A DNA stretch of 10,495 nt, taken from NCBI GenBank assembly GCA_964510165.1, contig CAZEBC010000144.1:1-10495 (forward strand), given 5' to 3'. A program made the position numbers and the translations under genes. The notes beneath the pieces are model-generated. The model searched no databases. It saw only the letters and a list, made by a program, of their open reading frames with translations, and was not told the origin of the DNA. Origin of the DNA: an uncultured bacterium (GTDB taxonomy: Bacteria > Abyssobacteria > SURF-5). This document shows positions 1,392-10,495 of this stretch, piece after piece. How positions within the stretch are numbered: position 1 is the first letter of the stretch; the number at the start of each line of letters is the position of its first letter.

Positions 1392-1844
1392 TCAACCGAA
1401 AAACTTATCGAAATATTCCTTCTTGGAGAGGAGATTGAGATCGATCTTGAGGAAGTCTTCAGCTTCTTCCTTCGTGATAGGGGATGCTTCGGGATTTCTG
1501 ACGGAAGGAGACACTTCGCAATGAACCTGCCGCTCACATTGGCCGCTTTCTTCCGCTATTCGGTCCTCGGCCTGCCGTATGATGCGCTCTAGTCCCACCT
1601 CTTCCAGGGGCTTCTCATGCGTATTAATGTATTCCATGATTATGCGAGCGAGCGATTGTATTTTTTCCCCGAAGTTTTCTTTTCCAAACACTTCCCGCCG
1701 TAATCCTATTACTTTAGTTTCATACAGGGCCACGGGTTCTCCGCATATCGGACATGGTCCCATCAGGATAGTCCCGGGCAGGGGAGCGGCTATATATCCA
1801 CTGGATTTGCAGTACGGACATGTTACGCGAATCATCTGGGACAT
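1392..1844 (-). CDS. Hypothetical protein with N-terminal zinc ribbon (CPYC-x18-CPIC), about 150 aa
   Basis: Open frame with two CPxC motifs. SD AAGGAGG lies just upstream of ATG 1844 (ATG 1835 is an alternative), favouring these over the track's 1871 start; own promoter upstream. Confidence 0.8.
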   Translation of the reverse strand: MSQMIRVTCPYCKSSGYIAAPLPGTILMGPCPICGEPVALYETKVIGLRREVFGKENFGEKIQSLARIIMEYINTHEKPLEEVGLERIIRQAEDRIAEESGQCERQVHCEVSPSVRNPEASPITKEEAEDFLKIDLNLLSKKEYFDKFFG

Positions 1845-1895
1845 GCAGCCTCCTTGAGGGCAAATCACCAAGGTCTAGACGGTGTCAACATCCTT

Positions 1896-3270: not shown

Positions 3271-3342
3271 ATGGTGCAATCGGCCGGGCAATGGGGGCGC
3301 CCCGATTGGTTTTTGGCGCCTGGGACACGAGAAGTAGAACTG

Positions 3343-3834
3343 ATGGAATACAAACGAGCGATCCTGAATTTCAGCTTTGTAGTCCCGAATGCGCTGGCGG
3401 GAATGGCGCGCCCTGGCGTAATAGACTTATTAGCCGAAGATCTGCAATTTCTGAAAGGGGAAGGAATCAGGGCGATCGTGTCATTATCCGAGACTCCGCT
3501 TGAGGGGGACGCCGTTCGCCGGAGCGGATTGGAGTATTTACACGTTCCGGTGGATGATTTCACTGCGCCTGATTTGGAGAGTGTGGAGCGATGCATCGAT
3601 TTTGTCGAGAGGATGCTGCTCATAGAGAACAAGCCGGTGGCAATTCACTGTGGGGCGGGTTGCGGTCGCACCGGCACCATGTTGGCCTGTTATTTCGTCA
3701 AACAGGGTAAGACGGCCGAAGAGGCCATAGATCATTTGAGGTCGCTGAGGCCTTGTTCCATAGAGACTGAAGGCCAGAAGGCTTTGGTATACCGATACGA
3801 GGAACATCTGAAGTATCGTTCGTCCACGGATTGA
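3343..3834 (+). CDS. Cys-dependent dual-specificity / protein-tyrosine phosphatase family protein (about 163 aa)
   Basis: P-loop HCGAGCGRTG (CX5R), general-acid loop VPVDDFTAP, N-terminal NFSFV..LAGMARPG, C-terminal RPCSIETEGQ. Start set at ATG 3343 because ATG 3271 directly abuts the -10 box and would lie upstream of the transcription start. Confidence 0.92.
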   Translation: MEYKRAILNFSFVVPNALAGMARPGVIDLLAEDLQFLKGEGIRAIVSLSETPLEGDAVRRSGLEYLHVPVDDFTAPDLESVERCIDFVERMLLIENKPVAIHCGAGCGRTGTMLACYFVKQGKTAEEAIDHLRSLRPCSIETEGQKALVYRYEEHLKYRSSTD

Positions 3835-4328
3835 GATTGAACCGCGATTTGTCCTTTGCAGAGACCAGGACCCCCAGATTTCTTGCCGACAATATGTTGG
3901 GCCGTCTTGCCAAGTGGCTCAGGATTCTCGGATACGACACGGAATATGCATTCGACGCCTCCGACTCCGATCTCATCGCGCAGGCCCAATCGGAGGGCAG
4001 GATTCTGCTGACTCGCGACACTTCGTTGATACGTCGGAAGGAGTGTCGCAACTATATTTTCATCAGGAGCGATCACTGGCGCGAGCAATTGCGGCAGGTT
4101 TATGAAGAGGCAGGGCTCAACTGTGACTCGCTTCTCACAAGATGCGTGGTCTGTAATGCCCGGCTCAAAGCCGTGGATAAGCAATCCGTCGAGTCGGTCG
4201 TTTTTCCGTATGTCTACAAGACTCAGGAGCGGTTTTTCAAATGCGATCATTGTTCCCGCATATTCTGGCCGGCCACGCACGTGAGCCGCATCATTGATGA
4301 GATCAACAACTTGAAGGAGGATTCATGA
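3831..4328 (+). CDS. Mut7-C RNase domain protein (PIN-like fold with C-terminal zinc ribbon)
   Basis: FLADNMLGRLAKWLRILGYDT, EGRILLTRD, TRCVVCN...FFKCDHCSRIFWPATH are characteristic Mut7-C motifs; TTG start overlaps the upstream stop (exact start uncertain). Confidence 0.92.
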   Translation: MRLNRDLSFAETRTPRFLADNMLGRLAKWLRILGYDTEYAFDASDSDLIAQAQSEGRILLTRDTSLIRRKECRNYIFIRSDHWREQLRQVYEEAGLNCDSLLTRCVVCNARLKAVDKQSVESVVFPYVYKTQERFFKCDHCSRIFWPATHVSRIIDEINNLKEDS

Positions 4329-5950
4329 AAGGGATGAGGTTATTCTCGGGCTTGCTAGCCTTGACGGTTGCGCTTCTTGTCGGGTGTGCCCAGCGCGAGA
4401 ACGGGAATGCGACGGCCGAGCCTCAGACGCCGCAGCCGCGAGCGGCTCAACCGCAAGCGACGCAACCCGGCGCAATCGAGACGGAAGCGCCTCCGGAGGT
4501 GATTCGACCCTCGGTCTCGGGGATGTTTTATTCCTCCGATGCAGACACCCTAAGGTCCAACATAAGGCGTTATCTTGAACAGGCAGAGAAACGAGAGATT
4601 GACGGCGAAATCGTGGCGGTTCTTGTTCCGCATGCCGGGTACCAGTATTCGGGCCCTGTGGCGGCCCATGCGTATAAGGCCATCGCGGACGATGTCCGAA
4701 GAAGGAAACCGGAAGAACGACCCGAAGCGGTGGTTGTGCTTGCGTTCAGCCACAGGAGCGACTATGCCGGAGTCTCAGTGTATTACAAGGGGGCGATGGA
4801 AACCCCGCTTGGACGCGCGCATGTGCATGAGCGGATAGCCCGGGAATTGATGGCCAGCGATTCGTGTTTCTCTTTTTCTGAACGTGTTTTTGCGGGCGAG
4901 CATTCGGCAGAAGTGCAGATACCATTTCTTCAGGTGGTTCTGCCCGACGTGCCGCTGGTTCCAGTGGTTTTCGGACGGCAAAACGTTGGCAACATCGAGG
5001 CGGTCTCCAAGGGTTTGACGAAAGTCGCCGAGAAGAATCGAATTGTCCTTGTGGCGACGACAGACCTGTCCCATTTTCATCCGTACGATGCCGCAAATTC
5101 CATGGATTCCGAGATAGTTCAATCAATCTTAAGAGGCAGTCCTCGGGAGATGGCTGCCTTTATTGACCAGAATTATGGACGGATGCATGGGCCGTGCGGG
5201 CCGGGTCCGGTGCTTGCGGTGCTCTCGTATGCCGAGAGTCTGGGGGCGGCGCCAGTGTTATTGAAATACGCGAACTCAGGCGATGTCACGGGAGACAAAG
5301 GGGCGGTTGTCGGATACGCGGCAATTGCGTTCGTGAGGAAGAAGGATAGCGGAGAGAAAGCGGCAAAATCCGCGGTTGAAGAGATCCAGACCGAATCCTT
5401 TTCTCTCAGCGAAGAGGACAAGAAGACACTGCTCAAGCTTGCGCGCATTTCGCTGGAGTCGTTTATAAGGGAGGGCCGTATGGTGGAGATCGCCCCGCCC
5501 TCAAGCAAGGCGCTGACAGAGAATGGGGCGGCCTTTGTCACATTGCACAAGGCCGGGAACTTGCGCGGCTGCATCGGGAGCATGGAGGCGAGAGCGCCGC
5601 TGTACCAGACCGTCATGCGAATGGCGGTTGCGGCTGGCACGGAGGACCCGCGGTTTCCGCCCGTTCGTCCCGAAGAATTGGACGACATTCACATTGAGGT
5701 GTCGGTGAACACGCCGTTGAGAGAAGTGTCGGGCGCGGACGAGGTCATTCTTGGAACGCACGGTGTCGTAGTCGAGAAGGGATTTCGCCGTGGCGTCTTC
5801 TTGCCGCAGGTAGCCACGGAGACGGGCTGGACGAAGGAGGAATTCCTGGGGAATCTCTGTGTTCACAAGGCGGGGCTGCCAGCCGACGCGTACAAGAAGG
5901 ATGCGAAGCTGTATGTGTTTTCATCGATCATCTTTGAAGAGGAGCGGTAG
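4325..5950 (+). CDS. amrB: AmmeMemoRadiSam system protein B (MEMO1-like) fused to protein A (AMMECR1-like), with N-terminal lipoprotein signal peptide
   Basis: MEMO motifs RPSVSGMFY, PHAGYQYSG, EHSAEVQIPFLQ, TDLSHF, CGPGP, NSGD..VVGY; AMMECR1 motifs AFVTL..LRGCIG, DPRFPP, GVFLPQV, KAGL from about 5404; lipobox LVGC (Cys21); SD AAGGAGG; ATGA overlap with the Mut7-C gene. Confidence 0.93.
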   Translation: MKGMRLFSGLLALTVALLVGCAQRENGNATAEPQTPQPRAAQPQATQPGAIETEAPPEVIRPSVSGMFYSSDADTLRSNIRRYLEQAEKREIDGEIVAVLVPHAGYQYSGPVAAHAYKAIADDVRRRKPEERPEAVVVLAFSHRSDYAGVSVYYKGAMETPLGRAHVHERIARELMASDSCFSFSERVFAGEHSAEVQIPFLQVVLPDVPLVPVVFGRQNVGNIEAVSKGLTKVAEKNRIVLVATTDLSHFHPYDAANSMDSEIVQSILRGSPREMAAFIDQNYGRMHGPCGPGPVLAVLSYAESLGAAPVLLKYANSGDVTGDKGAVVGYAAIAFVRKKDSGEKAAKSAVEEIQTESFSLSEEDKKTLLKLARISLESFIREGRMVEIAPPSSKALTENGAAFVTLHKAGNLRGCIGSMEARAPLYQTVMRMAVAAGTEDPRFPPVRPEELDDIHIEVSVNTPLREVSGADEVILGTHGVVVEKGFRRGVFLPQVATETGWTKEEFLGNLCVHKAGLPADAYKKDAKLYVFSSIIFEEER

Positions 5951-6133: not shown

Positions 6134-6508
6134 GTGAGAAGGACAATTCTGGTGATTGACAGCGATCCCATCGTAGGAGAGTTGTTGCGCGGCTATCTGG
6201 CGCAACAGAAGGGATTCCAGCTTTTCGAGAGTAAGGCTGGCGCCGAGGGGATTGAGGCGGCGGTCAGGCATTTGCCCGACGTCATTTTTCTTGGGTTCAG
6301 ACTCGATGATATGGGTGGTCTCGAAGCCCACGAAGCGCTTAGGCAGAATCCTGTCACGAAGGACATCCCGGTCATTTACGTATCTTCATTCTTCACGCTT
6401 CGAACCGTCGAAAAGGCAACGGTGAAAGGAGCGAAGGGCTTCATCAGCCGGCCCTTCACCATCTCCAAGATACACAATAAGCTGAACACGGTCCTCGGCC
6501 CCTCTTAA
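6134..6508 (+). CDS. Single-domain response regulator receiver (CheY-like), atypical / pseudo-receiver
   Basis: Receiver fold pattern ILVIDSD...PDVIFLG...MGG...TKDIPVIYVS...GAKGFISRPF. GTG 6134 has SD AGGAG 9 nt upstream; ATG 6083 (track) has no SD but remains an alternative. Confidence 0.88.
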   Translation: MRRTILVIDSDPIVGELLRGYLAQQKGFQLFESKAGAEGIEAAVRHLPDVIFLGFRLDDMGGLEAHEALRQNPVTKDIPVIYVSSFFTLRTVEKATVKGAKGFISRPFTISKIHNKLNTVLGPS

Positions 6509-7194
6509 GTTGTTGCTACATTTCCGCATTCCGAAGTTGAGCGATTCCGGAGCAAGGTTTCAATCGCATCGTGCCGGATGGGGATACCCTTCACGCATCT
6601 GCACTGATTACAATTCTCACACTTTTCGATCCCAAGGGAGACTGCCTGAGCGAGTCGATCCATCTCGTCGCGGGGGTCAAGATGAAGCTGGGCAAGCCTC
6701 ACAAAGACGTATGGCCCACCGAAGCTCTCGTCTTGCCATCTGAAATGCGGACAGCTCGATACGCAACCATAACACTCAAGGCAGCCGATCAGGTGTTTGT
6801 AAGTCTGCGAAATCGGCAGCGGACCAAGCGTCTGCTTAACGGTCGGCCATACAAAGAGCTTCAATTCGGAAATCCTGGAGTCCAGGACGGACCTGTCCAC
6901 GATGAGGTCCCGCAGGGGGGGCAGATTCTTGAGAGGCGAGATTCTCATTTGTTCATGAGCGCTGGTGGCGCATGCGAGGCGAGGGATTCCGTCGACGTTC
7001 AGCGCGCATTCTCCGCACTTAACGCATCGGCAGCCGAACCTGAAGGCAAGCGTCGAGTCATATTCTTCATAGATATACAGCAAGGCTTGGAGGACGGTTG
7101 TCCCCTTTCCCATCGGGACATCATAGCTTTGCGTCTCGAACGTGCCTGATTCTGGCACGTAGCGTTCAATATGCACGTTTCCGCTCGACATCAC
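6505..7194 (-). CDS. Succinate dehydrogenase/fumarate reductase-type iron-sulfur subunit (SdhB/FrdB/TfrB-like)
   Basis: [2Fe-2S] motif CRCVKCGEC...LAC, PLKNLPPLRDLIVD, CLECYGCVSSCP, CENCNQCRC; start (GTG 7194 or ATG 7191) overlaps the flavoprotein stop. Confidence 0.9.
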   Translation of the reverse strand: MMSSGNVHIERYVPESGTFETQSYDVPMGKGTTVLQALLYIYEEYDSTLAFRFGCRCVKCGECALNVDGIPRLACATSAHEQMRISPLKNLPPLRDLIVDRSVLDSRISELKLFVWPTVKQTLGPLPISQTYKHLIGCLECYGCVSSCPHFRWQDESFGGPYVFVRLAQLHLDPRDEMDRLAQAVSLGIEKCENCNQCRCVKGIPIRHDAIETLLRNRSTSECGNVATT

Positions 7195-9002
7195 GCGTCT
7201 TCTCCGAGGTTCAATCGGGCATCAAGGATTCTTGCCTGTGTCTTGCGAGGTAGGGCGCTCAAGATCACGAACTGGATGCGCTCTCTGAGCGGGTTTGGGC
7301 CGCCCCGCGCATCGAGTCGAACCTTCGAGAGGGCGACATCCTCGGTCCCGACTGAAATCCTGCCGTCCTTCATGGATACGAGGACATTCTTGAGCCACTT
7401 CTTGTTGTTTCGGTTCGGATAATCCAGTCTGACATGGCCTCCCCGAGATTCCTCACGTGCGAGGGCAGAACGAGCAAGCGCTTCGGCGGTGCACAGCATC
7501 TTCTCAAGCTCGATTGCGTCAAGCCATTCGGGATTGCACTCTCGTCGCGCGGCAATTCTCATGTCGTTTGAAAGGGCGCGTATCTCAAGTATCTCTGAGA
7601 TGGCGGATTCGAGCCCAGTTCTATCGCGGATGGGGCCGACCTTGTCCCACATTGTTCTTTGGAGCCTGCGGATGAGTTCGATTGGCCTGTAACGGCCGGA
7701 TTGGCCGAGGAATCTCTCGGCAATGGAGCAGAATTCTGGTTCGGCTTCTGGGAAGGACATATGCGGCGCGTTTTTCGCCGCCAGTTCACCGGCGAGACGC
7801 CCAAAAATGAAAAGTTCGGCCAGGGAGGTCGAGCCGATGCGGTTAGCGCCGTGCAGCCCGCCCTGCACCTCTCCGACGGCGAAGAGGTTCTTGAGGCCTT
7901 TAACACGGCAATCGGGATTAACTCTGACGCCGCCCATCTGATAGTGAGCCGTTGGAAATACATCCCACGGGACCTTTCCCTGAGCGGCTTCTTCGCCGTA
8001 GGCCCGGCGGATCGAATCCGTCATGGAGGGAAACGTACTCTTGAGGAAATCGAACATCTTGGCGCCGAGCACCCTGCGCAGATTGGGGGAGAGGTCAAGG
8101 AGCATGCCGCCATATTCAGTCGCCCGGCCTTGCTCTTTAGCGAGGGACATGGCGGCGGCGACTTCTGCCCTGGTTCTGGTTCGAACATTGGATAGTATGA
8201 GGCGCCGTTTCGTGTCGAGGAGTCTGCCGTAGGGACCCGCTATTGCAGGCTCACCGCAGACGATTCCGATCATGGAATCGGGATGCGTAAGGGCGAAGGG
8301 GATGAATTGCTGATGCTCCATGTCGAGCAGTTCAGCGCCGGCCATAAGCGCCAGGGCATAGCCGTCACCTGTTACGGTGCGCATGTTGCTGGTGTGGGGA
8401 TAGAACAGCCAACCCAAGCCGCCGGTCGCGAGAATCGTCTGTTTGGCGGAAACGGCCAGCATCTCGCCGGTGAGCCATTGCAGGCAAAGCGCGCCTGCCA
8501 CTTCATTTCCGCATTGTAGGAGCCGCAGAACGACTGTCTCGTCGAGCACGCGCACGCCGGTTCGCGCGGCGGCGCTTCGGAGTGCCGTGCCGATGGGAAC
8601 GCCTTCGGAATAACCCGGCAGAGTGCGAGGGATACTGTGACCGCCGAGCGGGATGGGCAAGGGGGCGAGCTCCCCCGATTTCTTGCGGGCGAAGGTAAGC
8701 CCGAACTTCTCCATCAAGTCGGTTGCGCGATGCGCGCGCTCACAGAATCGCTCCACCAGAGATTGGTCGTTTAGGAACTCTCCCCCCACGACCATGTCGC
8801 GCATCAAGTTTTCCGGGGAGTCCCTAGGGGAAATGTTGGGGTGCAGAACGAGACCGCCCGCTATTCGGGTGTTGCCACAACCGTACGGCGCTTTCGAGAC
8901 CAGGAGCACTTGTGCGCCCGCCTGTGCGGCGGTTGCGGCGGCAACGATTCCCGCGCCGCCCCCGCCGATGCAGAGGACGTCGCATTGAAGATTCTTGATC
9001 AT
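7191..9002 (-). CDS. SdhA/FrdA/NadB-family FAD-binding oxidoreductase subunit, probably non-covalent FAD, substrate uncertain
   Basis: IGGGGAG, LATGG, TSN..TGDG, DME.QQF.P, PTAHYQMGG, GE..GGLHGANRIG, REESRGGHVRLDYP motifs. Confidence 0.92.
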   Translation of the reverse strand: MIKNLQCDVLCIGGGGAGIVAAATAAQAGAQVLLVSKAPYGCGNTRIAGGLVLHPNISPRDSPENLMRDMVVGGEFLNDQSLVERFCERAHRATDLMEKFGLTFARKKSGELAPLPIPLGGHSIPRTLPGYSEGVPIGTALRSAAARTGVRVLDETVVLRLLQCGNEVAGALCLQWLTGEMLAVSAKQTILATGGLGWLFYPHTSNMRTVTGDGYALALMAGAELLDMEHQQFIPFALTHPDSMIGIVCGEPAIAGPYGRLLDTKRRLILSNVRTRTRAEVAAAMSLAKEQGRATEYGGMLLDLSPNLRRVLGAKMFDFLKSTFPSMTDSIRRAYGEEAAQGKVPWDVFPTAHYQMGGVRVNPDCRVKGLKNLFAVGEVQGGLHGANRIGSTSLAELFIFGRLAGELAAKNAPHMSFPEAEPEFCSIAERFLGQSGRYRPIELIRRLQRTMWDKVGPIRDRTGLESAISEILEIRALSNDMRIAARRECNPEWLDAIELEKMLCTAEALARSALAREESRGGHVRLDYPNRNNKKWLKNVLVSMKDGRISVGTEDVALSKVRLDARGGPNPLRERIQFVILSALPRKTQARILDARLNLGEDA

Positions 9003-9008
9003 CAGGAA

Positions 9009-9350
9009 CTATTCTATCTCGATTTCCTTGACAGCCAGTTCCAGGCCTTCGATGACGTCAATGTCTTTCGACTGGCATTGCGGACAGAGGAACTTGAGGT
9101 CCTGCACCATAAAGATGTCCTCGCAGGATTTGCACTTCGCCTTTATCGGGACTTTCTCGACATCGAGCTTTGCGCCTTCGGCGGGCGTGTCCTTTGTGAT
9201 GAACTCGAAGAAGAAGGAGAGTTGGTCGGGAACGATGCCGCGAAGTTCGCCCGCGCGGATGCGGACGATCCTTATCTTGCGCGCGCCGTTTTTCGCGGCT
9301 TCGGCGAGGGTTATCCTCAGGATGCTCTGGGCGATTGACATTTCGTGCAT
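9009..9350 (-). CDS. hypA: Hydrogenase maturation nickel metallochaperone HypA
   Basis: N-terminal MHE Ni-binding motif, GEL..IVPDQLSFFF, CKSC...CPQC zinc site, G.EL.VKEIEIE C-terminus, 113 aa. Confidence 0.96.
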   Translation of the reverse strand: MHEMSIAQSILRITLAEAAKNGARKIRIVRIRAGELRGIVPDQLSFFFEFITKDTPAEGAKLDVEKVPIKAKCKSCEDIFMVQDLKFLCPQCQSKDIDVIEGLELAVKEIEIE

Positions 9351-9361
9351 AGTGCGTCTTT

Positions 9362-10429
9362 CTACCGGTTTCGTTTTTCCTGCATTATGGAGGACATCAG
9401 GTCGCGGAAGTTGCTTTTTGGGGGTTCGATTTGTTCACGGCGGATCATAGAGAGTGACTCAGTGGGGCAGACCATGTTGCAGAGGCCGCAGCCCAAACAC
9501 TTTTCGGGGTCAACCTCGGCGACCTCATTGACCGTCAGCGCGCCGAAATGGCAGCGGGCCACACAGGCCTCACATGCGACGCAGGTTTCGGCGTCGATGC
9601 TGACGACGAAATGGGATGTTGCGACCGCGTGGGGTTTGTGGAGCCGGGTGATTCCGCCGAGGATCCCGCAACAGCACCCGCAGCAATTGCAGATGAAGTT
9701 TATATGTTTCTGGGTATTATCGGAGAGGTGCACGAGCCCTTCCTGCTCCGACTTGTCAAGCACCTTGTAGGCCTCGTCTTTGGTTATCCGGCGCCCAAAG
9801 CCGCGCTCGACGACAAACTTTGCGAACGGCCCAAACTGGAGGCACACATCTTTGGACCTGCCGCAGGATTTTCCCAACAGTTCCATCTCGTGGCGGCAAT
9901 AACATGTTGCCAGGGCAAGGTAGTCGGCCTCTTCGATGAATTTCGATACCATCTCGTAAGGAAACACCTGGACGCCGCTCGGGATTTCCTTTTCCATGAC
10001 AAGCACCCGGGCCATTTGAGTTTTTGATGAAAACATGTTCTCGCCCCAACCACTGGTGTACATTTCTTCGAACAGCGCAGCCAGTTCCCGCGTTCTCTCG
10101 GTGACCTCGCCCTTCATGAACTGTAGTTCGAAAATGCCCGGCAATAGCGGTAGAATGCTGTAATGGTCCACGCCGTCCCGAACCCGGTGATACACAAGCC
10201 CTTTGTCGGCCATCGACTCGAGAATGGGTTTCAGCTGCGAATCATCCATCCCGATTGTTTCGCAGATTGAGGGTAGGGGAGTAGGAAGCATCGGAAGCTC
10301 GGCGCCCACCTTGGCTTGCTCGGCGGTAAAGAGCGCCTTCAGCAATTCGATGAATTTCTCGCTCAGAGGCGCACCCGCCGGGAATTGGTTGAGCTTGTCG
10401 ATCAGACGAGCGTAAATGCTCCGCGTCAT
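9362..10429 (-). CDS. Cys-rich 4Fe-4S binding protein (about 355 aa): HTH-like N-terminus, CxCR...CNCCGCCC central domain, C-terminal 2x[4Fe-4S] ferredoxin
   Basis: CVACEACVARC and CLGCGLCNMVCP ferredoxin motifs; central ATCYCRH, GLVH, ICNCCGCCCGIL; SD AGGAGG 6 nt upstream of ATG 10429 favours it over 10456. Confidence 0.88.
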   Translation of the reverse strand: MTRSIYARLIDKLNQFPAGAPLSEKFIELLKALFTAEQAKVGAELPMLPTPLPSICETIGMDDSQLKPILESMADKGLVYHRVRDGVDHYSILPLLPGIFELQFMKGEVTERTRELAALFEEMYTSGWGENMFSSKTQMARVLVMEKEIPSGVQVFPYEMVSKFIEEADYLALATCYCRHEMELLGKSCGRSKDVCLQFGPFAKFVVERGFGRRITKDEAYKVLDKSEQEGLVHLSDNTQKHINFICNCCGCCCGILGGITRLHKPHAVATSHFVVSIDAETCVACEACVARCHFGALTVNEVAEVDPEKCLGCGLCNMVCPTESLSMIRREQIEPPKSNFRDLMSSIMQEKRNR

Positions 10430-10439
10430 TGTGATCCTC

Positions 10440-10495
10440 CTAGGATTGGTTTCCAAGATTAAATTTGGGCCAGCGGTTCCAGTCGCCGTTCATCT
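10440..10495 (-). CDS. Possible 3' end of an upstream gene of the same operon (truncated by the window edge)
   Basis: One frame reads ...MNGDWNRWPKFNLGNQS* with TAG overlapping the next gene's SD (TAGGAGG); another frame ends in TAA at 10459-10461. No promoter visible. Frame and identity unresolved. Confidence 0.3.
   Translation of the reverse strand, partial: MNGDWNRWPKFNLGNQS

Follow-up and report, generated by a model that had tools for sequence, protein, structure and literature searches.

The stretch of DNA analysed here, hereafter the window, is the complete 10,495-nucleotide (nt) contig C144 (CAZEBC010000144.1) of a 4.17-Mb, 97% complete assembly (GCA_964510165.1) of an uncultured bacterium assigned to the Abyssobacteria (SURF-5). 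Four co-oriented open reading frames (ORFs) on its minus strand encode a cysteine-rich Fe-S protein of 355 amino acids (aa), which we call FeS355, the nickel metallochaperone HypA, and a pair of Sdh/Frd-like proteins, which we call SdhA' and SdhB'. A fifth gene, hypB, reaches the window with its last six bases. From the window edge inwards, the features are:

10490..10495, minus strand: end of hypB (last codon and stop, stop codon 10490-10492); the remainder lies on contig C190, 50-721; 223 aa in all
10430..10489, minus strand: 60-nt hypB-FeS355 spacer, with the ribosome-binding site AGGAGG at 10436-10441
9362..10429, minus strand: FeS355, 355 aa; winged helix, unclassified Cys-rich domain and 2x[4Fe-4S] ferredoxin domain
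9009..9350, minus strand: hypA, nickel metallochaperone, 113 aa; PF01155, TIGR00100
7191..9002, minus strand: SdhA', flavoprotein of the SdhA/FrdA fold, 603 aa; FAD_binding_2 and Succ_DH_flav_C, with a 35-aa C-terminal tail
6505..7194, minus strand: SdhB', Fe-S subunit, 229 aa; Fer2_3 and 4Fe-4S dicluster domains, TIGR00384

A ten-gene operon across two contigs

The 5'-most start codon of the four genes is the ATG at 10429, six bases after AGGAGG. The spacing between FeS355, hypA, sdhA' and sdhB' is 11 nt, 6 nt and a 4-nt overlap, as a first-pass annotation made from the letters alone had described and as the ORFs bear out; the overlap would be 1 nt if sdhB' starts at the ATG at 7191. The same annotation held that no hypB adjoins hypA. 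This was an artefact of the window edge, because hypB continues on the adjoining contig C190. The window ends in the same 55 bases with which C190 begins, an overlap that is unique among the contigs, and the encoded 223-aa protein scores 267.7 bits with the HypB model TIGR00073 (cut-off 121.2). A minus-strand scan of the 60-nt spacer between hypB and FeS355 found no promoter-like or terminator-like site.

Beyond hypB, the minus strand of C190 carries, nearest first, genes for an acyl-CoA dehydrogenase (ACAD), a QueG/RDH-like Fe-S protein, a CoxE-type vWA protein, a MoxR AAA ATPase and PadR, packed at 0-60 nt spacing. The resulting row of ten genes, padR-moxR-vWA-(queG-like)-acad-hypB-FeS-hypA-sdhA'-sdhB', is unbroken in 7 relatives, some of which lack the QueG-like gene; hypB lies directly upstream of FeS355 in all 7. 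In an eighth relative (G009) the row is divided over two contigs, and it was not found in the family genome G003, which is 77% complete. The orthologues are named in databases as Candidatus Abyssubacteria or Hydrogenedentota. The four window genes are the distal end of this ten-gene operon, which occurs in one family of uncultured bacteria and encodes no membrane anchor. A response-regulator gene lies 3' of the operon on the opposite strand.

That the unit ends at the Fe-S subunit, with no SdhC/D, cytochrome b or CCG domain, holds for both the window and the 6.8-kb upstream contig in Pfam and profile searches, and no operon protein has a 19-residue hydrophobic stretch above 1.61 on the Kyte-Doolittle scale. 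A nickel enzyme encoded upstream had been suggested as the source of electrons. The upstream genes of the row are those listed above, and there is no hydrogenase and no other nickel enzyme among them. A literature search found nothing that joins Abyssubacteria with HypA, and the accessible passages of the literature on hydrogenase in Abyssubacteria hold nothing on this operon.

FeS355 and the nickel chaperones beside it

FeS355 consists of a winged helix (residues ~1-98), an unclassified Cys-rich domain (~100-270) and a 2x[4Fe-4S] ferredoxin domain (277-328), the last being the only part matched by Pfam. We reject the initial designation of polyferredoxin, since the VhuB-type model NF045874 gives 22.1 bits against a cut-off of 600 and a single dicluster domain is present. 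The AlphaFold model of the full protein has a pLDDT of 94.3 and a pTM of 0.90. In a structure search with the model, the winged helix aligns with 5y6i_B over 61 residues (Z 9.5), and winged-helix proteins fill the wider list of structural matches. Foldseek with the full model matched the ferredoxin and winged-helix parts only and returned nothing at E <=0.001. Folded alone, the Cys-rich domain reaches a low pLDDT of 62.1, with a best structural match of Z 2.1, which does not speak for a new fold, and the ESM Atlas returned only clusters that are unnamed or called 'ferredoxin'. The Cys-rich domain holds ten cysteines, of which C176, C178, C189, C196, C247, C249, C250 and C254 are invariant in 47 homologues, with C252 and C253 retained in at least 90% of them. 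The motif CNCCGCCC includes Cys-Gly-Cys, which we take to resemble the A-cluster motif of acetyl-CoA synthase.

The N-terminal 275 residues of FeS355, which we call the N-domain, retrieve 2601 cluster representatives (E <=0.001). In our sample of 401 genomes, 10 from the family of the window and 391 from outside it, the N-domain family occurs in 55 of the 391. A search among longer proteins gave a single match, P0241, an 894-aa protein that also carries PF14691 and PF07992. Residues 18-306 of FeS355 align with residues 23-322 of P0241 at 28% identity (E 1e-33; 2.6e-23 in the initial search), and the cysteines of CxC and CNCCGC are shared. P0241 thus has the domain architecture of IsrA, which was described from Acetobacterium wieringae ISORED-2 as a putative isoprene reductase (Kronen 2023, PMC10134865). 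Judged from these alignments, FeS355 belongs to the family of the IsrA N-terminal Cys-rich domain, for which Pfam has no model.

That paper (PMC10134865) gives the isr operon as isrA-hypA1-hypB-350-aa '4Fe-4S ferredoxin'-hypA2. The operon is transcribed as a unit and responds to isoprene with strong induction; its host genome has no [NiFe]-hydrogenase and no hypCDEF. The first ~270 aa of the 'ferredoxin' resemble the IsrA N-terminus and are followed by a 4Fe-4S domain. Among 988 IsrA homologues, HypA lies at most 5 genes away in 73% and HypB in 56%, and the authors propose nickel in the Cys6 site of the IsrA domain. A 2026 preprint on Pelotomaculum reports that isoprene induces hypA ~373-fold and hypB ~585-fold. 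The hypB-FeS355-hypA order of our operon matches the hypB-ferredoxin-hypA2 section of the isr operon. What had appeared as an isolated hypA, oddly placed between redox genes, is one of two chaperone genes that bracket the Cys-rich protein.

HypA of the window is the sole HypA match in the genome (PF01155, 119.5 bits, cut-off 28.9; TIGR00100, 104.2 bits, cut-off 88.1) and carries the N-terminal MHE nickel motif with two CxxC pairs, CKSC and CPQC. HypB contains GSACH and NLVCP, the Cys-His...Cys site of the G domain. The 97% complete genome has no match to PF00374, the hydrogenase large subunit, and none to HypD; CxxC motifs are absent from the two NuoD copies, and urease alpha gives no match above the cut-off. 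Among the ten family genomes, PF00374 occurs in 1 and HypA in 9, each time at this locus. In a tree of 33 hand-picked HypA sequences, HypA of the window family groups with that of genomes G105, G016 and G185 at 99/99 support; G016 and G185 are hydrogenase-less.

Two genomes outside the family also join hyp genes to the Fe-S family. In G105 (85% complete), the order FeS-MCM-like-B12-binding-hypB-hypA is found on one strand, with a second FeS355-like gene convergent at 18 nt, and the sole PF00374 match is below the cut-off (E 8.9e-4). The surrounding locus (L104, G105:C318:1-12362) holds two HGD-D (2-hydroxyacyl-CoA dehydratase-type) genes, two FeS355-family genes, an MCM-like mutase with a B12-binding subunit, hypB, hypA, an FMN reductase and a glycyl-radical enzyme. 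In G113, hypA-hypB-FeS379 lie on one contig, and a separate hypA is found on another, 4 kb from a hydrogenase large subunit; the FeS-linked HypA of G113 falls outside the group that the HypA tree joins to the window family. No orthologue of either hyp-FeS adjacency was found in the phylum of G113 (17 genomes) or the class of G105 (2 genomes). Over the 391 genomes, the N-domain is distributed as follows:

HypA present, PF00374 absent: N-domain in 6/9 genomes
HypA present, PF00374 present: 37/184 genomes
HypA absent, PF00374 present: 4/23 genomes
HypA absent, PF00374 absent: 8/175 genomes

Genomes with HypA and without hydrogenase, compared with the rest (6/9 against 49/382), give a Fisher odds ratio of 13.6 (p = 3.6e-4), an association that is overstated because two pairs among the six N-domain genomes share a family.

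N-domain loci number 11 in the window genome, against a single hypAB pair. Paralogues of FeS355 stand beside Mo-oxidoreductases, are fused to a short-chain dehydrogenase (SDR), or lie near ACAD or acyl-CoA ligase genes. The fusion is a 641-aa protein (G000:C34:13104-15029; L013:4105-6030, minus strand) that joins an FeS355-type module, with TrmB-like winged helix, Cys-rich part and 4Fe-4S domain, to the dehydrogenase. On contigs G000:C138 (L014) and C241 (L016), FeS355-family genes directly adjoin molybdopterin oxidoreductases, with three family copies on C138.

Other nickel proteins are encoded in the same genome. A Wood-Ljungdahl cluster (G000:C23:3488-18080, L020) contains HdrA-like, MvhD, FolD, MetV/MetF, CooS, ferredoxin, AcsB, CdhD-like and RACo genes; the ORFs examined there include no MinD-type chaperone gene. 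The 4.2-Mb genome also has four LarA-like (Lar_N) genes with scores above the cut-off, on contigs C13, C2, C141 and C212. Three MinD-type ATPases have a CxC motif, which we take as the criterion for candidate CooC/AcsF chaperones, and one of them stands beside an ACS-like fragment, a 255-aa protein that resembles the central part of the ACS beta subunit only and lies at a contig end (G000:C236:3849-5332, L103).

The Sdh-like pair

SdhA' matches FAD_binding_2 (213.4 bits) and Succ_DH_flav_C (107.1 bits) in Pfam and stays below the cut-offs of all curated models, including TIGR01812 (319.5 bits against 567.3). One alternative is that the pair is a true soluble fumarate reductase of the Tfr type, or a succinate dehydrogenase. 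Its best NCBIfam rows are indeed TfrA (NF004900, 339.4 bits) and TfrB (NF004898, 166.7 bits), and SdhA' keeps the His of HYxMGG and the Arg of HGANR. However, both scores are far under the cut-offs of 718 and 385, and alignment with 7d6v_A and E. coli FrdA (3p4p_A) places N44, I234, F236 and A255 at the active-site positions. We take N44 to occupy the position of the covalent-FAD His, I234 and F236 those of the His and Thr of QxHPT, and A255 that of the catalytic Arg. The subfamily pattern GNTR / QFxPF / GEPAxAGP runs through 32 sequences of 40-71% identity, in which F236 is invariant, A255 is present in at least 90% and the Ile234 position varies. SdhB' scores 142.3 bits with TIGR00384 (cut-off 88), with [2Fe-2S] ligands C55/60/63/75 and [4Fe-4S] ligands C138/141/144/148. 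Its third motif is C192-x2-C195-x2-C198-x-C200, not C-x5-C-x3-CP. It covers positions 5-217 of the 488 of the TfrB model and has no PF02754 match, so that the CCG half of TfrB is missing. Without the covalent-FAD His, the His that binds fumarate and the catalytic Arg, SdhA' is not a standard fumarate reductase. We reject that label, and consider the Tfr-type alternative very improbable. SdhA'B' is a predicted soluble dehydrogenase or reductase, probably acting on a carboxylated substrate. The initial description of a soluble, anchorless Sdh-like pair stands, and its analogy with Tfr catalysis falls.

Close relatives of SdhA' are confined to one family. Orthologues at 62-71% identity occur in this family only; at E <=1e-90 SdhA' is found in 10/401 sampled genomes, all 10 of them family members; the 19 nearest database clusters bear the labels of this group wherever they are named; and a separate scan of genome contigs gave one locus, in a family member. 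The wider subfamily (32-51% identity) comprises 80 metagenome loci, in 69 of which SdhB' adjoins SdhA', the remainder mostly ending at a contig edge. Neighbours in 16 of these loci include carboxylate (TRAP/TTT) transporters, enolase-superfamily enzymes, 2-hydroxyacid dehydrogenases, UbiD, a glycyl-radical enzyme and CCG proteins, among others. A paralogous SdhA'/SdhB' pair of the window genome (46% and 44% identical; G000:C4:31642-35149, L011:6643-10150) follows a DUF362 protein and has HpaB-like, enoyl-CoA hydratase and thiolase genes near it.

The operon could also be a mixed one of unrelated functions. SdhA'B' would then turn over an organic acid independently of FeS355 and HypAB, either unaided or with a partner from another locus. 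The pairing of SdhA' with SdhB' among varied neighbours that never include hyp genes would agree with this, as would the DUF362 protein that takes the upstream place in the paralogous C4 pair. Yet the gap between hypA and sdhA' is 6 nt in the window and ~7 nt in the relative L004 (tblastn coordinates), all 7 relatives have hypA, sdhA' and sdhB' in this order, and SdhB' requires some redox partner, for which the operon offers no other candidate. We regard a mixed operon as quite improbable.

Elsewhere in the window, three plus-strand or minus-strand features were noted. A single 541-aa ORF at 4325-5950 (plus strand) fuses Memo-like (PF01875) and AMMECR1 (PF01871) domains, preceded by a hydrophobic N-terminal stretch with a Kyte-Doolittle value of 1.95 at residue 4; the fusion is kept in 7 relatives. 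At 3271-4328 (plus strand), the genes for a DSP-type phosphatase (187 aa) and a Mut7-C RNase-domain protein (165 aa) share 4 nt, and the pair is conserved in relatives. A 159-aa ORF at 1392-1871 (minus strand) has CxxC pairs close to its N-terminus and no Pfam match.

A proposed split enzyme and its relation to known systems

We propose that HypA and HypB load nickel into FeS355, which exchanges electrons with the anchorless SdhA'B' pair, and hold this account with a confidence slightly short of even. HypB, a GTPase, and HypA would most likely deliver the metal to the ten-cysteine domain of FeS355, whose two [4Fe-4S] clusters would relay electrons. The translationally coupled SdhA'B' would supply a soluble flavoprotein and a three-cluster Fe-S subunit, with a substrate other than fumarate. 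The pair probably docks on FeS355, and the complex would then correspond to single-chain IsrA divided into subunits, its flavin module being of the Sdh type instead of the NfnB type. Seen as a whole, the operon would join an isr-type nickel-chaperone cassette, through its Cys-rich Fe-S protein, to an anchorless, non-fumarate Sdh-like pair found at its side only in Abyssubacteria; this split version of IsrA we consider nearly as probable as not. The data show the order of the genes, the families of the proteins, the replacement of catalytic residues of fumarate reductase, the homology of FeS355 to the N-terminal part of an IsrA-like protein and the lack of a [NiFe]-hydrogenase; we infer nickel in FeS355, contact between FeS355 and SdhB', the direction of electron flow and the substrate. 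In favour of the proposal are the tight and conserved gene order, the lack of a classical HypAB client, the homology to IsrA-type proteins, the parallel with the isr operon, the hyp-FeS neighbourhoods of G105 and G113, the association across the 391 genomes, the HypA tree and the eleven N-domain loci beside one hypAB pair. The first-pass annotation had seen the Cys-rich protein as an electron input that replaces the membrane anchor. It remains a plausible redox partner of the Sdh-like pair, but is more likely a client of the nickel chaperones than a stand-in for an anchor, because hypA and hypB bracket FeS355 as in the isr operon.

A number of observations weigh against this proposal. The 10 FeS355 paralogues of the genome, and most homologues elsewhere, have no adjoining hyp genes. 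HypA is absent from 12 of the 55 non-family N-domain genomes. In hydrogenase-less genomes, seven other hypA loci, five of them hypAB pairs, lie among unrelated genes; no N-domain gene was found near them by tblastn, and the Pfam matches there are unrelated. In PMC10134865, a neighbourhood analysis showed no HypA/B association of the ferredoxin gene. HypA or HypB occurs in 0/80 of the metagenome SdhA' loci and an FeS355 relative in 1/80. Synteny, which the first-pass annotation had named as a check, is upheld for the row in 7 relatives, but these metagenome counts confine the SdhA'B' link to one family. The conservation may moreover be plain inheritance, because the whole neighbourhood is syntenic within the family, opposite-strand genes included. 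Finally, the genome offers HypAB other nickel clients in the CooS/ACS Wood-Ljungdahl cluster and the four LarA-like genes.

Much of this would also be expected if HypA and HypB were general nickel chaperones for carbon monoxide dehydrogenase/acetyl-CoA synthase (CODH/ACS), and perhaps for other nickel enzymes, with their place around FeS355 an inherited gene order and FeS355 an ordinary low-potential carrier for SdhA'B', a view near to that of the first-pass annotation. CooS is present in 10/10 family genomes, the full acs cluster on C23 has no chaperone gene among the ORFs examined, synteny of the whole region is limited to one family, and FeS355 paralogues do without hyp genes beside oxidoreductases as varied as Mo enzymes, an SDR fusion and ACAD; the 12 N-domain genomes without HypA point the same way. 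However, the three MinD-type CxC ATPases are candidate CooC/AcsF chaperones by the criterion assumed above, and G113 retains a separate hypA for its hydrogenase. In addition, hypA and hypB flank or adjoin the Fe-S family in three further unrelated lineages, in one of which the genes form an induced operon, and the eight invariant extra cysteines exceed the needs of a plain carrier. We judge the CODH/ACS alternative, the main rival, to be rather unlikely, and return to nickel loading of FeS355 as the preferred account.

A bolder reading takes several of these steps together. The domain shared by FeS355 and the IsrA N-terminus would carry out catalysis in a so far undescribed class of nickel-iron-sulfur enzymes, for whose maturation HypA and HypB suffice. 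FeS355, SdhA' and SdhB' would be the three subunits of a soluble reductase, in which electrons taken from an organic acid or thioester at the Sdh-type flavin would drive the reduction, at the nickel site, of an unactivated C=C bond, hydrocarbon- or isoprenoid-derived. One hypAB pair would have been retained in hydrogenase-free genomes to serve eleven paralogues. Taken jointly, these statements are unlikely to hold in full.

Few types of nickel enzyme are known, and a Cys-rich Fe-S domain dependent on HypAB would add one, in a domain family as widespread as the counts above indicate. The locus shows a hypB-FeS-hypA cassette outside Firmicutes and offers a possible explanation for HypA and HypB genes in hydrogenase-less genomes. 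Here the Cys-rich module is a subunit of its own next to a flavin module of another kind, which suggests a modular enzyme family, not a single isoprene reductase. The locus also defines a subfamily of SdhA-like proteins with other residues in place of the His and Arg of fumarate reductase. It points to a putative soluble redox enzyme, which may depend on nickel, in a subsurface bacterium that has not been cultured.

Several known systems bear comparison with the operon. The polyferredoxins MvhB/VhuB of methanogens share with FeS355 a high cysteine content and 4Fe-4S ferredoxin motifs, whereas FeS355 has one dicluster domain and its other cysteines sit in a non-ferredoxin domain. TfrAB of methanogens resembles SdhA'B' in being soluble and anchorless with non-covalent FAD, and provides its best-scoring NCBIfam rows. 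The scores, however, are less than half of the cut-offs, the fumarate His and catalytic Arg are replaced in SdhA', and SdhB' lacks the CCG domains. By curated models, HypA and HypB are bona fide members of the families that serve [NiFe]-hydrogenase and the urease of Helicobacter pylori, the latter being a precedent for a non-hydrogenase client. Here, in contrast, the genome lacks matches to the hydrogenase large subunit and to HypD, as well as a urease alpha match above the cut-off, and the two genes bracket an Fe-S protein.

The closest likeness is to the isr operon. In both, hypB is followed by a protein of ~350 aa, with ~270 aa of Cys-rich sequence and a 4Fe-4S domain, and then by hypA. Both hosts lack [NiFe]-hydrogenase; the isr host also lacks hypCDEF and the window genome has no HypD match. 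HypA has MHE and two CxxC pairs in both, and neither HypB carries a metal site at its N-terminus. The Cys-rich domain also shares homology with the N-terminal part of proteins built like IsrA, a comparison made through P0241 and the description in the paper. Unlike the isr operon, ours contains one hypA instead of two, stands behind moxR, vWA and acad genes, and belongs to another phylum. Instead of a fused IsrA with its NfnB/GltD-like FAD/NAD(P)H module, it encodes the separate SdhA'/SdhB' pair.

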